From: Escherichia coli
GTDB taxonomy: Bacteria; Pseudomonadota; Gammaproteobacteria; Enterobacterales; Enterobacteriaceae
Assembly: GCF_051903065.1 (NCBI RefSeq)
Contig: NZ_CP178438.1
Reading direction: 5' to 3' (one strand)
Length of the DNA: 64,000 nucleotides
The notes beneath the pieces are model-generated. The model was not told the origin of the DNA, made no database searches, and was given only the letters and a program-made list of their open reading frames with translations. Shown piece by piece: positions 13,955 to 22,869 of the stretch. How positions within the stretch are numbered: the first letter of the stretch is position 1; every line of letters starts with the position of its first letter. The position numbers and the translations under genes are program-made.

Positions 13955-14248
13955 CTATTGATTATCAACAGGAAGAAAAGAAACCAAACGTAACCCATCC
14001 AAATCCACCGGAATACGTCTGTTTTCTCCCCAGGTCTGAAATTCAAAACCCGACTCGGTATTGGTCACCCAGGCCATCACCACATTTCCGCAACCAGCCA
14101 GTTGGGTAATTTGCTGCCAGATCATCTCCCGAATACGTTTTGATGTATCACCAACATACACACCGGCACGCACTTCCAGTAGCCAGATTGCGAGCCGTCC
14201 ACGTAAGCGCGGAGGGACATTTTCTGTAACAACCACGACCATGCTCAT
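13955..14248 (-). CDS. cas2: CRISPR adaptation endoribonuclease Cas2
   Basis: 97-aa [29 protein letters not shown]..., Cas2e-like; overlaps cas1 stop. Confidence 0.93.
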
Positions 14249-15168
14249 CCGCCGCGCCCCCGGTGACCACTATCACCCAGCGTTTCAGGTTCAGGGATGG
14301 CAGGCGGTAACATATCCGGCGCGGGTTGTGGTGGTTCAATTTCACCTGCAGCAAGGACTTCCTCAATTAACGGTATTAATTTGCCCGTTAACTTAGTGCT
14401 ACGGAAAATATCGCGACAGGCTAATCTGACTTCTTTATCAGATTCTGCCGGGTGTCTTGCCGCTATTTCAAATGCCTTTGGCACAACCGAATCAAATTTA
14501 ATGATATCGGCTATGTCATAAACAAATGAAAGCGGTTTGCCACTATGAATAAATCCAATAGCGGGCGCATATCCCGCGGCTAATACTGCCGCTTCAGAAA
14601 TACCGTACAGACATGATGTGGCAGCACTGATGCAGCGATTCACAACATCGCCTTTTTCCCAGTCTTTAGGATCGTATTTGCGACCATTCCATTTCACACC
14701 ATATTGTTTCGCCAGTAATGCATAGGTCTGGCGAACGCGGGATCCCTCAATTCCCCGTAGCTGATCCACTGAACGGCGAGCTGGCGGTGGCTCACGAAAA
14801 CGTAATTCATACATTTTGCGCACCACCTTCAGGCGTAGATCTTCCGTTAAAGCCAGCTTTGCCTGGTAGAGTAATTTATCTGCCCGCGCCCCTCCGGGTT
14901 GTCCGGAAGAGTAAACGCGAACGCCCGCTTCACCGACCCAGACCAGCAGTGTTCCCACCGTGGCGGCCAGATGCACCGCCGCGTGGGAAACTCTCGTTCC
15001 CGGTTCGAGCATAATGCAGGCGACCGATCCCACCGGAATGTGCGTGCGGATCCCGGTTTTGTCGATCAGCACGAAAGCGCCGTCCAGTACGTCGATTTGA
15101 CCGTACTGGAGGAAGATCATAGAGGTGCGATCTTTTAACGGGATCGGACTCAGTGGTACAAACGTCAC
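14245..15168 (-). CDS. cas1: CRISPR integrase Cas1
   Basis: 307-aa ORF ...[31 protein letters not shown]... Confidence 0.95.
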
Positions 15169-15815
15169 ACCTCTGCTCCGGGTTTGATCAGCATCAGACC
15201 ACAGCCGAACGCGCGGCTTTTGCCATACCCCTGACTGAGACGTTGCAGAAATAACCCGGGATCGGTGACCGTAAGCATCCCCGTATAATCCACGCTACTG
15301 AACTGGATCAGTTGCCGGGAGTTTTCCCGCCGCAGTTGCTGTTGTCGGTAGGCATCAACCGAGGTATCCAGCAGTGTAAAACCGCTTCTCTCCCCCTGCG
15401 CTGCCAGCCAGTCCAGCGCCGCCTGTTGTTGATGCAACCAGACATCACGCCCTTCCGCCTGTCCCCTCACCTGCCGTTTCGCCTCCATCAGCAGATCGTG
15501 GCGCTTGCCCGCTTTACAAATTGTGGGATTCGCCCGCAGGTTGAAACAAAGGGATTGTCCGGTACGCAGCTCCGGAGCAAATGACCGGCATTCGATAGTG
15601 AAAGTTTCACTTTCCGCCGGGCGTTCCTGCGAGAGGACAAAAAAGCGAAACGCACCCTGAAGTTCCTCCCGACGATAAAGAAATTGCCTTTCTTTGCCGC
15701 CAGGGAAGAGATCCCACAGCCACTGATGCATCACATATTCACCGCGATCCACCAGATGCAGCAACTGCGCAGGCAAAAGCTGAGCGGTATGTAAGGTTAT
15801 TCTTGAGAGGTACAT
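15165..15815 (-). CDS. cas6e: Cas6e (CasE/Cse3) crRNA endoribonuclease
   Basis: Position between cas5 and cas1; C-terminal G-rich loop SRAFGCGLM typical of Cas6e. Start placed at internal ATG (MYLSRITLH...); track ORF extends 46 codons upstream into cas5. Confidence 0.8.
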   Translation of the reverse strand: MYLSRITLHTAQLLPAQLLHLVDRGEYVMHQWLWDLFPGGKERQFLYRREELQGAFRFFVLSQERPAESETFTIECRSFAPELRTGQSLCFNLRANPTICKAGKRHDLLMEAKRQVRGQAEGRDVWLHQQQAALDWLAAQGERSGFTLLDTSVDAYRQQQLRRENSRQLIQFSSVDYTGMLTVTDPGLFLQRLSQGYGKSRAFGCGLMLIKPGAEV

Positions 15816-20144: not shown

Positions 20145-20166
20145 TGGCGTCATCCGACGCCAGGGC
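20141..20166 (-). terminator. Strong hairpin 4 nt downstream of cas3 stop (possible cas3 terminator)
   Basis: GCCCTGGCGTC-atcc-GACGCCAGGGC, 11-bp stem; on the cas3 sense strand it is followed by the repeat-derived hairpin and a TTTTTG run. Confidence 0.5.
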
Positions 20167-20169
20167 ATC

Positions 20170-22869
20170 TCAATCAACCTTGCCAATCAATCCTTCCGTA
20201 GCCGAATACCCGCAGCTTTCGTCATCGGTGACTAAAATCACGTTTGCCATCTCCGGATCTTGCCGTTGTTCAATGCACCACTGCCTGAACGCTTCCCCTT
20301 CCAGTAAAGAAAATTCATCCCGATGTTTTTTCCACCAGCTTCGACGCACTCTGGCAACGCTCATTTCCCATGCGTGAGCACCGCTGGCATAAGGCTTCAC
20401 CACACCGTCAATACAGGTAGCCAGCCACAGGGAAACAGACTCTTCAGCCAGACGTGTCGACAGCTTTTCCGGGAGGTAATCGTTGATATTGGCGGCATAG
20501 CCGGGCCTGAAGTTCAGCATAAACTTTTTAGCCATTGCGCGATCGCAGTAATATTTGCCCACTTGCTCCTGCTCGCTGCGGGCAAATCCTTCCGGCATTA
20601 CCACGTCCTCACCGTAGACGGATTCAATAAGAAGCCGGGCTGCGTGTGGCATCTGAATAGCGCCTTGCTCACGCAATACTCGCTGCGTCAGCCAGATTCG
20701 CCCATGATCGGGGTAGACATATGCGCTGTTACGCATCGCACTACCAAACCATTCGTCACCCGGAGAGTCGTCCCAGACGGGGGCCAGAATCAGCAATTCA
20801 GGAGGGGAACGCTCGTCTTTTCCATCACGTTTTAACTGACCATTAATATCACGAATATGCCGTTGTAATCGCCCCGCTCGCTGGATCAGCAAATCAATGG
20901 GGGCCAGGTCGGAGATCATTTCGTCCAGGTCAATATCCACACTTTGCTCAATTACTTGTGTACAAACAATGACTTGAGATGATCTTTTTAAACTACAATT
21001 TTTACCAAAGCGTGCCAGCGTTTCCGTTTCAATTCGCTGGCGATCGCTAAAAGCAAAGCGGCTATGAAAAAGTGAAAGGCTGGAAGCAGGAATGACGCCG
21101 CGGGCAAGTAACTGACGATAAACCTTAATAGCGTCATCGACAGAATTCCGGATCCAGGCGATGCATTTCCCCTGACTTACCGCTGATTCGATACGCGCAA
21201 TACATTCTTGTTCGCTATGAAGCCAACCCACGCTCACGCTACGCTCAACGTCTTTGCGCGTCGCTACCCGGTGCGAATGCACATCGGATTTCGTGACATG
21301 CGTCAGCCAGGGGTAATCATCCTTTTCTAGGAACGGAGCTTCTTGCTGGCCCTCTGTGCCACGCGCAAAGGCGGCGACAAGTTTGTCGCGCTGCTGTTGA
21401 GATAACGTAGCAGAAAGCAAAATGACGCTGTTTCCGCCACGCACCTGTCGCTCAATCAACCCTTCAAGAATGTACGACATGTAAGCGTCACAGGCGTGGA
21501 TCTCATCAGCCAGCAGGATTTTGTTACTCAACCCCAGAAGCCGCAGATTATTATGTTTAAACGGCATCACTGCCATCATCGCCTGATCCAGCGTGCCGAC
21601 GCCAATTTCAGCCAGTAAAGCCTTCTTGTTACTGTCGGCAAACCAGGCTGCACATCCTTGACTGAACGCTTGTTCATCCGGTTCTTCTGACCCGACTAAA
21701 TCACCGGACCAGAGTGATTCATTAAAGCGTTCCATTAATGTACGGGCGCTGTGTGCCAGCACCAGGCTGGGGCGGGATTCTGGCGAAAAGAAAGCAAGCC
21801 AGGTTTTGACCAGCCGATCGTACATGGCATTGGCCGTTGCCATTGTTGGCAGGCCAAAAAACAAACCCTGAGCTTTATTCTCAGCCATCAACCTGTGCGC
21901 CAGGATAAGCGCCGCTTCTGTTTTACCTGCGCCAGTCACATCTTCCAGAATAAATAACTGTGGCCCTGGCTGGCTGATATCCAGATCCAGTACCTTTTGC
22001 TGTAATGGTGTCGGGTGCTCAATAAAAGGAAACAGCGTATTAATTCCGGTGAAAGGTGCGGTTTCTGCTTTTGGAGGAAAGACGGTTAAGGCGTTTTGAG
22101 CCTGAACTAAAGTTTTCTGCCAGTAATCTTTAATATTCATTGTCTGTGCGACGCGTGGAAAAAATCGCGTTGACGAACCCGTCCAGTCTGCGAGTACGAC
22201 TGTTGCAGAGATATACCAGGAAAGTTGTTTTAAAAGTTCAACGCCCTCGTCATCATCCCAGAATGTGGGAATCTCTATGAGCGGAAACAGTGACTTGATT
22301 TCAAGGAGAAAATCTCGTGCGGCAGCTTTGTCTTCAGGCAGGAAATTATCCAGTTCATCAATACGGTCAGGGGGCCGACCATGATGCCCGGTAGTCATGG
22401 GCATCCACATCGCTATTACACGTTTAAGTTTGCGAGTAGAGAGTGAAGAGGCAGGAAGCAATTCTTCGCATTCACTTAAATAATGATGCCACAACCAGTA
22501 GCCCAGCGTTGAATGAGAGATCTTTTCGTAATTCTTTCTTGCGCCTTCCGGAACCTTGAGTTGTGGGTGCAGGTAAAGTTGCTGAAATGAGCGGGCAAAT
22601 TTTCCAATATCGTGCCAGCACAACAACCAGGCGAAAAATTGAGCCGCCTGTTCCTTGTCAGAAATCCCTAATTGACGAAAATAATCAGCCAGCCCGAAGC
22701 AATTTCTTTTAACCATTAAATAGCCCATCGCGGCCACATCCAGCGAATGCCAGCAAAGAAGGTGATAGTCGTCACCCCCTTCTTTCTCGTCGCGTCGGGT
22801 TTTTCCCCAGAAATCAAAGAAAGTCACAATATTTTTATCCTTCAGTAAACTTAAAGGATATTTACGCAT
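20170..22869 (-). CDS. cas3: Cas3 HD-nuclease/helicase
   Basis: 899-aa ORF with N-terminal HD-like region and SF2 helicase motifs (DVTGAGKTEA, DEIH). Confidence 0.93.
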   Translation of the reverse strand: MRKYPLSLLKDKNIVTFFDFWGKTRRDEKEGGDDYHLLCWHSLDVAAMGYLMVKRNCFGLADYFRQLGISDKEQAAQFFAWLLCWHDIGKFARSFQQLYLHPQLKVPEGARKNYEKISHSTLGYWLWHHYLSECEELLPASSLSTRKLKRVIAMWMPMTTGHHGRPPDRIDELDNFLPEDKAAARDFLLEIKSLFPLIEIPTFWDDDEGVELLKQLSWYISATVVLADWTGSSTRFFPRVAQTMNIKDYWQKTLVQAQNALTVFPPKAETAPFTGINTLFPFIEHPTPLQQKVLDLDISQPGPQLFILEDVTGAGKTEAALILAHRLMAENKAQGLFFGLPTMATANAMYDRLVKTWLAFFSPESRPSLVLAHSARTLMERFNESLWSGDLVGSEEPDEQAFSQGCAAWFADSNKKALLAEIGVGTLDQAMMAVMPFKHNNLRLLGLSNKILLADEIHACDAYMSYILEGLIERQVRGGNSVILLSATLSQQQRDKLVAAFARGTEGQQEAPFLEKDDYPWLTHVTKSDVHSHRVATRKDVERSVSVGWLHSEQECIARIESAVSQGKCIAWIRNSVDDAIKVYRQLLARGVIPASSLSLFHSRFAFSDRQRIETETLARFGKNCSLKRSSQVIVCTQVIEQSVDIDLDEMISDLAPIDLLIQRAGRLQRHIRDINGQLKRDGKDERSPPELLILAPVWDDSPGDEWFGSAMRNSAYVYPDHGRIWLTQRVLREQGAIQMPHAARLLIESVYGEDVVMPEGFARSEQEQVGKYYCDRAMAKKFMLNFRPGYAANINDYLPEKLSTRLAEESVSLWLATCIDGVVKPYASGAHAWEMSVARVRRSWWKKHRDEFSLLEGEAFRQWCIEQRQDPEMANVILVTDDESCGYSATEGLIGKVD

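Follow-up and report, generated by a model that had tools for sequence, protein, structure and literature searches.

Type I-E CRISPR systems fall into two forms in Escherichia coli, E1 (O157-like, with leader L1 and hok/sok) and E2 (K-12-like), and hok/sok between cas3 and cysH is missing only from E2 arrangements (Almendros et al., 2014, PMC3903273). CreR (Cas-regulating RNA), encoded by a degenerate mini-CRISPR between cas3 and casA of Salmonella enterica, guides the I-E Cascade to a partial match upstream of casA that is flanked by a protospacer-adjacent motif (PAM); PcasA is repressed about 8.6-fold, and competing CRISPR RNAs (crRNAs) relieve this repression (Liu et al., bioRxiv 10.1101/2023.03.10.532045). 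Mini-arrays transcribed opposite to cas3 are predicted in ~19% of bacterial I-E loci, among them an E. coli locus mapped with H-NS, LeuO and CRP sites (Shmakov et al., bioRxiv 10.1101/2023.03.03.530964). The class and a homologous Salmonella element are published, but in the literature searched we found no description of a CreR-type element in E1 E. coli. Here we analyzed a 64,000-nt stretch of E. coli DNA (NCBI RefSeq assembly GCF_051903065.1, contig NZ_CP178438.1; hereafter the window), in which eight cas genes span positions 13955–22869 on the minus strand. Our results show an intact E1 I-E locus with a rare 450-bp cas3-cse1 gap, which likely encodes a CreR-type autorepressor mini-CRISPR. 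An earlier sequence-only reading of the region had missed the gap and its mini-CRISPR.

The cas3-cse1 gap measures 450 bp in the window, 97 bp in O157 and 414 bp in K-12, and the window gap gave no meaningful alignment with that of K-12. The mini-CRISPR runs along the plus strand, in antisense orientation to the cas genes. The elements of the gap are the following:

20050–20058, plus strand: candidate creR promoter, extended -10 TGATAAAAT, proposed from motif conservation across loci
20007–20035, plus strand: alternative creR promoter, TTAACT-17-TATCAT, from a promoter scan
20064–20089, plus strand: psiR1, degenerate repeat CATTCCCTGATTCTAGGGATTAACCA, with a short hairpin and the 5'-handle-like ATTAACCA
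20090–20115, plus strand: psiS, 26-nt pseudo-spacer AGTTAGTGAGATACAAAAATTGGTTC, recognized by its target match
20116–20144, plus strand: psiR2, near-canonical repeat CTGTTCCCCGCGTCAGCGGGGATAAGCCC, agreeing at 24/29 repeat positions, stem intact
20141–20166, no strand assigned: GC-rich hairpin GCCCTGGCGTC-ATCC-GACGCCAGGGC, abutting the cas3 stop codon
20015–20013 (PAM ATG) and 20012–19987 (protospacer AGTTAATGAGAAACAAAGATTTTAAA), minus strand: predicted CreR target, a partial psiS match
20010–20005 (-35 TTAATG) and 19988–19983 (-10 AATAAT), minus strand: candidate Cascade-operon promoter, found by eye and sub-threshold

Since it is the extended -10 by psiR1 that recurs across loci, we retained the TTAACT-17-TATCAT promoter as no more than an alternative. 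The handle of psiR1 matches AUAAACCG at 6/8 positions, and the predicted RNA folds into three hairpins that correspond to psiR1, psiR2 and the GC hairpin (z = -6.7). When psiS is compared with its target, 18 of positions 1–21 match and the mismatches fall only at 6, 12 and 18, a score reached by none of the shuffled spacers (0/2000). No second PAM-flanked psiS site was found in the 64-kb window. The target lies 268–293 nt upstream of cse1, in an AT-rich region, where it would overlap the candidate Cascade-operon promoter. Every sixth base of the guide flips out in the Cascades of types I-E and I-F and stays unpaired. Type I-E Cascade also tolerates spacers shorter by one Cas7 step (6 nt), and psiS, with its 26 nt, is shorter than a normal spacer by exactly this step. 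The point about the flipped sixth base has also been made for mini-arrays by Shmakov et al. (bioRxiv 10.1101/2023.03.03.530964).

We then compared 12 long-gap loci, namely the window, E. coli 135, N3, TUM14771 and K-12, and those of Salmonella, Klebsiella spallanzanii, K. aerogenes, Citrobacter rodentium, Atlantibacter, Cronobacter and Chimaeribacter. All 12 present the same order of a promoter-like motif, psiR1, a psiS of 20–34 nt, psiR2, a GC hairpin and the cas3 stop, and in 12/12 psiS has a seed-anchored, PAM-flanked partial match within its own gap. The PAM of the target is AAG in six loci, ATG in five, including the window, and ATC in one, and the mismatched positions are nearly always 6 and 12. 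Shuffle controls reached the observed scores 0–1 times per 1,000–2,000, except for the weaker K-12 match (332/2000). The psiS sequences vary between alleles and the targets vary along with them. Depending on the locus, the target lies on either strand, as a direct repeat in some and an inverted one in others; this speaks against both a simple RNA hairpin and a palindrome bound by a protein.

Closer alleles carry paired changes. Strains 135 and BEC1 have T in place of A at position 15 of both psiS and the target, and their psiR2 stem shows a compensatory change from C-G to T-A; in TUM14771, a compensatory change lies in the terminal hairpin. An extended -10 (TGnTAnnnT) lies 11–17 nt upstream of the psiR1-containing 26-mer in 9/12 loci. 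The Salmonella long-gap locus (L046) shares with the window the first 7 nt of psiS (AGTTAGT), psiR2 and the terminal-hairpin layout. Judged on sequence, the mini-array has the features by which a CreR is recognized: two repeat-like sequences flanking a spacer-like one in a cas intergenic region, a partial, seed-anchored and PAM-flanked match upstream of cse1, and conservation with spacer-target covariation across relatives (12 loci; position 15).

Beside the cas3 stop in the K-12 gap (10511–10553, locus L003) we observed a degenerate repeat TTCCCTACTTAAGTAGGGATAAACCG whose ATAAACCG handle is perfect. The pseudo-spacer after it has its AAG-flanked partial match, the weaker one noted above, within this gap, and the element agrees with the mini-array that Shmakov et al. 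predicted for E. coli. A metagenome scan with a psiR1/psiS 20-mer gave no new haplotypes and one N3-type locus. Three unrelated metagenomic contigs sharing the 20-mer were chance matches with no target (best score 4), and a search for phage-borne mini-array mimics (Cracr-type) gave generic repeat matches only.

The long gap is rare. Of 5,426 complete E. coli genomes, 2,442 have in common with the window gap only its ~46 nt beside cse1, and ~99% of E1 genomes have a gap of ~97 bp. The long allele of the window was found in 6 genomes, the TUM14771 type in 7 and the N3 type in 3, a total of 16 long-gap E1 genomes out of ~2,440 with three very different alleles. In other species the gap is 11 bp in Citrobacter youngae, Phytobacter and common Salmonella enterica (L044, L045; no mini-array there), 28 bp in Enterobacter kobei, 89 bp in E. 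albertii and 151–173 bp in K. indica and Intestinirhabdus. It reaches 420–865 bp in a Salmonella lineage, K. spallanzanii, K. aerogenes, C. rodentium, Cronobacter, Atlantibacter and Chimaeribacter. The 97-bp gap appears to keep part of the terminal hairpin as a remnant, together with the ~50 nt that precede cse1, and it looks like a deletion derivative of the long gap.

In the mechanism that we propose, creR would be transcribed on the plus strand from ~20065, antisense to the cas genes, under the extended -10 promoter, and Cas6e would cut its RNA at both degenerate repeats. Cascade loaded with the creR RNA would bind 19987–20015 (ATG PAM). Pairing would fail past position 21 of 26 and leave the R-loop incomplete, and because it stops there, Cas3 would not be licensed. 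The bound Cascade would instead block the AT-rich Cascade-operon promoter, which would establish a negative feedback sensing free Cascade.

Several points weigh against this interpretation. The psiR1 hairpin is just 4–6 bp long and its handle is off AUAAACCG at 2/8 positions, so that we rely on the analogous Salmonella element in assuming that Cas6e cuts the RNA and that Cascade is loaded with it. The promoter scan of the gap gave no minus-strand promoter at its cut-off, and the match found by eye is weak. The psiS match, which extends to position 21/26, is longer than the validated 15 nt, and some recruitment of Cas3 could still occur. In addition, E. coli I-E systems are usually silenced by H-NS, and little is documented of the natural immune activity of E1. 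Finally, the mini-array is dispensable, since ~99% of E1 genomes do without it.

The hairpins after cas3 could also be a structure of the cas3 3' end, such as a terminator or stabiliser, or the scar of an old array or of recombination; no guide RNA would then be made, and the similarity to the nearby site would be an incidental inverted repeat. Two strong GC hairpins indeed abut the cas3 stop, the element is missing from ~99% of E1 loci with no obvious harm, and recombination is known to have made mosaics of the cas-E regions of E. coli (PMC3903273). An incidental repeat does not account for a PAM-flanked, seed-anchored match found in 12/12 loci despite unrelated spacers, for its covariation with the target, for a target whose orientation, direct or inverted, changes from locus to locus, or for the conserved extended -10 pointing into psiR1. 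Moreover, no U-tract follows the hairpins on either strand and no terminator was listed there in the scan. We therefore regard a structural or scar origin as unlikely.

A different question is whether the gap encodes a protein. The leader of cse1 contains one candidate:

19763–19903, minus strand: 46-codon open reading frame (ORF) beginning MLSIFLLQLVLSLLSKRQTKF, in the cse1 leader, preceded by AGAGGA, putatively coding

Its product would have a hydrophobic N-terminus, and the ORF is identical in the three window-type alleles aligned, which is uninformative on coding. In sister loci, a conserved ORF of ~32 aa (36 aa in Cronobacter; for example MEEKPNRYKRLFCRLMIRLGNKLSVSFQLSVR) lies in the sense of the cas genes between the mini-array target and cse1. 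We found it in E. coli TUM14771, K. spallanzanii, K. aerogenes, C. rodentium, Atlantibacter and Cronobacter and, truncated, in K. indica, with a Shine-Dalgarno-like sequence seen by eye in every full-length locus. Between TUM14771 and K. spallanzanii, its codons show 14 synonymous and 8 nonsynonymous differences. No homologue of this ORF was detectable in the window, N3, Salmonella L046 or K-12, and neither the 46-codon nor the 32-aa ORF gave a Pfam or NCBIfam match. The 32-aa ORF is a possible small protein co-regulated with Cascade.

There is a slight chance that the long gap is an addiction or sensor module, in which the CreR-repressed promoter would also drive a small toxic or regulatory protein; the candidate is the 46-codon ORF in the window and the 32-aa ORF in the sister alleles. 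If so, ~99% of E1 E. coli (97-bp gap) would have escaped this control by deletion. In its CreTA-like form, the Cascade-repressed promoter would drive a toxic product of the 46-codon ORF, and loss or inhibition of Cascade would harm the cell. The good Shine-Dalgarno of this ORF, its hydrophobic N-terminus and its position between the target and cse1 speak for such a module, as do the different 32-aa ORF at the equivalent place in sister loci, with its excess of synonymous changes (14 vs 8), and the possibility, left open by Liu et al. (bioRxiv 10.1101/2023.03.10.532045), that toxins of 'standalone' creR genes have gone unrecognised. Yet the ORF of the window is not homologous to the 32-aa family and matches no family, its invariance in three alleles says nothing about selection, and no comparable ORF exists in the N3 and Salmonella L046 alleles. 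We hold this CreTA-like version to be quite unlikely, and a CreR-type autorepressor remains the reading that we prefer.

The eight cas genes surrounding and following the gap are arranged in one orientation, in the order cas3-cse1-cse2-cas7-cas5-cas6e-cas1-cas2:

20170–22869, minus strand: cas3 (fused HD-helicase), 899 aa
18157–19719, minus strand: cse1/casA/cas8e, 520 aa
17621–18160, minus strand: cse2/casB (cas11), 179 aa
16554–17609, minus strand: cas7e, 351 aa
15797–16543, minus strand: cas5e, 248 aa
15165–15815, minus strand: cas6e, 216 aa
14245–15168, minus strand: cas1e, 307 aa, GTG start
13955–14248, minus strand: cas2e, 97 aa

According to the ORF list and the translations, every frame is uninterrupted, and we found no frameshift, internal stop or pseudogene in the eight. 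All products score above the curated NCBIfam cut-off of their type I-E family, so that the signature genes cse1 and cse2 are accompanied by cas7e, cas5e, cas6e, an HD-helicase cas3, cas1e and cas2e. The intact gene set announced by the sequence-only reading was therefore confirmed, and the four overlaps that it had listed proved exact: cse1/cse2 (-4, ATGA), cas5/cas6e (-19), cas6e/cas1 (-4, GTGA) and cas1/cas2 (-4, ATGA). The other junctions are cse2/cas7 (+11), cas7/cas5 (+10) and cas3/cse1 (+450). The ATGA and GTGA overlaps suggest translational coupling of the packed genes. The whole of 13955–22869 is 100% identical to E. coli 23CRST027 (NZ_AP045789.1), where the Prokaryotic Genome Annotation Pipeline gives the same eight genes, between iap and cysH, with a Hok/Gef gene adjoining cas3.

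Three start codons deserve mention. The longest cas6e ORF extends to 15953; its start was set at 15815 because the family match starts only at residue 47 and AAGGAGG lies upstream of this ATG. An alternative start of cse1 is the in-frame ATG at 19725. The annotated cas3 start has no preceding Shine-Dalgarno (22870–22899, minus strand) and a -10-like TAAAAT abuts its ATG; the upstream region has 27.6% GC, and both the annotated cas3 start and a promoter here are tentative.

Amino acid identities to the K-12 and O157 proteins were as follows:

Cas3: K-12 27%, O157 94%
Cse1: K-12 20%, O157 97%
Cse2: K-12 20%, O157 82%
Cas7: K-12 28%, O157 99%
Cas5: K-12 28.5%, O157 96%
Cas6e: K-12 27%, O157 98%
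Cas1: K-12 83%, O157 99%
Cas2: K-12 82.5%, O157 99%

With Cas3 and Cascade only 20–28% identical to K-12, the divergence that had been judged by eye was borne out by alignment, and neither frameshifts nor near-identity to K-12, the two findings that would have spoken against the earlier claims, were observed. The same reading had suggested an alternative E. coli variant; the locus is indeed distinct from K-12, but it is cas-E1, which is the commoner form and not an unusual one. The region is, on its gene content and neighbours, the chromosomal iap-cysH CRISPR-Cas locus with a type I-E system of the cas-E1 (O157:H7/Salmonella-like) form, because its proteins are 94–99% identical to O157 (except Cse2), its leader is L1, and hok/sok and the E1 primer site are present. 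The site of the E1-specific primer cas3E1-R (PMC3903273) was found once near the cas3 5' end (22769–22788, 2 mismatches; 0 expected by chance). A K-12-type (cas-E2) or decayed, nonfunctional locus, for which nothing speaks beyond shared gene order and 83% Cas1/Cas2 identity, has practically no chance of being correct and is ruled out by the junction and frame check (no stops or frameshifts), the 20–28% identity of Cas3 and Cascade to K-12, the differing leader, the presence of hok/sok and the intact catalytic residues.

The region of the window is covered over at least 80% in 2,408/5,426 complete E. coli genomes and has any match in 2,792, while K-12-type cse1 occurs in 1,143. E1 is the more prevalent variant in E. 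coli, and the gene set itself is ordinary and already annotated in RefSeq. Loci at least 99% identical to that of the window were found in only 4 genomes, most E1 genomes having 90–96% nucleotide identity; Cse1 of the window is 70–75% identical to Salmonella Cse1. By these comparisons the copy in the window is a somewhat divergent recombination mosaic. In the 5' half of cse2 (17755–18155), nucleotide identity to O157 falls to 77–88%, while cas1-cas2 are ~100% identical. The Cse2 protein is 96% identical to the N3 and TUM14771 alleles versus 82% to O157, and this allele travels with the long-gap strains. Among more distant relatives, contigs of Methanosarcinales and Methanoperedenaceae encode a Cse1 that is 36–40% identical to that of the window, compared to 20% for K-12 Cse1, a likeness that may point to transfer of this I-E lineage between domains. 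One contig of 7 kb, binned as a Collinsella sp. metagenome-assembled genome, carries a cse1 97% identical to that of the window and the 97-bp E. coli gap, and is probably a mis-binned E. coli contig.

The arrays and the neighbouring hok/sok were mapped as follows:

13403–13858, minus strand: CRISPR-I (CRISPR2.1), 8 repeats GTGTTCCCCGCGCCAGCGGGGATAAACCG and 7 spacers of 32 nt
13859–13954, minus strand: CRISPR-I leader, L1 type, 96/96 nt identical to the O157 leader and unlike that of K-12
40977–41554, minus strand: CRISPR-II (CRISPR2.3), 10 repeats and 9 spacers
~41555–41660: AT-rich sequence at the expected place of a CRISPR-II leader, putative, by position
39319–39408: degenerate array remnant at the CRISPR2.2 position, 2 repeats and 1 spacer, ~1.6 kb from CRISPR-II
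23062–23356, minus strand: intact hok/sok toxin-antitoxin between cas3 and cysH, with a Hok/Gef coding sequence and Rfam sok

The repeat pattern occurs 21 times, versus 0 expected in shuffles, and the locus has the 29-nt repeats, 32-nt spacers and AT-rich leader beside cas2 of a type I-E array. The repeat search agrees with the two arrays that had been claimed before, and the array beside cas2 has the O157-identical leader. In CRISPR-II, six consecutive repeats (41160–41493) carry a variant base (CGCTAGCG, not CGCCAGCG), while the end repeats are canonical. Spacer s2_7 (41038–41098) is identical over 32/32 positions to the ImmA/IrrE gene of Escherichia phage vB_EcoM-705R4, and s1_4 (13525–13585) matches the major capsid gene of three vB_EcoM coliphages at 30/32. 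No match was found between the spacers and plasmids. An Rfam scan of 12000–24500 (E <= 0.1) gave sok (111.7 bits, 23199–23356) as its sole match at gathering score; no match fell in the cas3-cse1 gap or the arrays, and two sub-threshold matches both lie outside the cas genes.

Cas3 keeps HD residues H86, D87 and K90, Walker A K316, DEIH D455 and motif III S486 and T488; Cas1 keeps E141, H208, D218 and D221; and the catalytic histidine of Cas6e is kept as H30, the equivalent of K-12 H20. We take these positions to be those whose mutation abolishes function in K-12. It is plausible that the system is functional if de-repressed, because these loss-of-function residues are conserved and two spacers match coliphages. 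Cas6e would then cut the array transcript into crRNAs, Cascade (Cse1, Cse2, Cas7, Cas5 and Cas6e) would use them to find DNA beside a PAM, Cas3 would degrade this DNA, and Cas1-Cas2 would add spacers. The core of the gap has 36.5% GC and the region upstream of cas3 has 27.6%, values compatible with H-NS silencing, of which base composition is no test. A scan for CRP-like sites (TGTGA-N6-TCACA, at most 2 mismatches) found none in the cas3-cse1 gap and two weak ones upstream of cas3.

A further regulatory element may lie immediately before cse1:

19727–19753, minus strand: candidate CsrA/RsmA site pair, formed by the hairpin GACCAGGGATGGTC (19753–19740) and the Shine-Dalgarno GAGAGGAT, with predicted binding

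The hairpin is directly upstream of the ribosome-binding site and has a GGA in its loop, a second GGA being part of the Shine-Dalgarno. It is kept in 8 loci, including the short-gap O157 type, and the changes preserve the stem. The loop sequence CAGGGATG is close to the CsrA consensus. An analogous RsmA (CsrA) site with the same layout has been reported 5' of Serratia cas8e (PMC8450108).

E. coli would have a natural presence/absence polymorphism for a CreR-type Cascade autorepressor. Such strains would offer matched natural backgrounds to determine the share of CreR feedback in the cost, expression and anti-CRISPR sensing of a native I-E system. What has been concluded about regulation in K-12 (E2) or O157 (short-gap E1) does not necessarily extend to them.

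Compared to the O157 cas-E1 locus (PMC3903273; Diez-Villasenor et al., 2013, PMC3737337), the window agrees in its eight genes and in their order and overlaps, and has the identical L1 leader, the iap-cysH site, hok/sok beside cas3 and 94–99% amino acid identity except for Cse2 (just 82%); it differs by its gap of 450 bp instead of 97 bp. The K-12 cas-E2 locus shares the subtype, gene order, repeat and chromosomal site, ~83% identity in Cas1/Cas2, and a long cas3-casA gap (414 bp), at the end of which there is likewise a degenerate repeat whose ATAAACCG handle is perfect. However, its Cas3 and all Cascade subunits are only 20–28% identical, its leader differs, its annotation has sokX only, and its cas6e/cas1 and cas1/cas2 junctions are +15 and +1.

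With CreTA, the RNA toxin-antitoxin guards of CRISPR-Cas described by Liu et al., the element of the window would share a degenerate mini-CRISPR through whose RNA Cascade represses a promoter within the cas locus; in place of the toxin gene of CreTA, the window has the candidate 46-codon ORF downstream of the target. The Salmonella CreR differs in several details. The host of the window element is an E1 E. coli with a rare allele, the PAM is ATG instead of AAG, the match extends to position 21 (failing at 6, 12 and 18) instead of 15 consecutive nt, the target lies ~270–295 bp from cse1 instead of ~140 bp, and the element is known from its sequence. In its anatomy, however, the Salmonella CreR is closely alike: both lie in the cas3-casA gap antisense to cas3, in both psiR1 keeps the handle and psiR2 keeps the hairpin, and both have a partial, seed-anchored match with a canonical I-E PAM upstream of casA.

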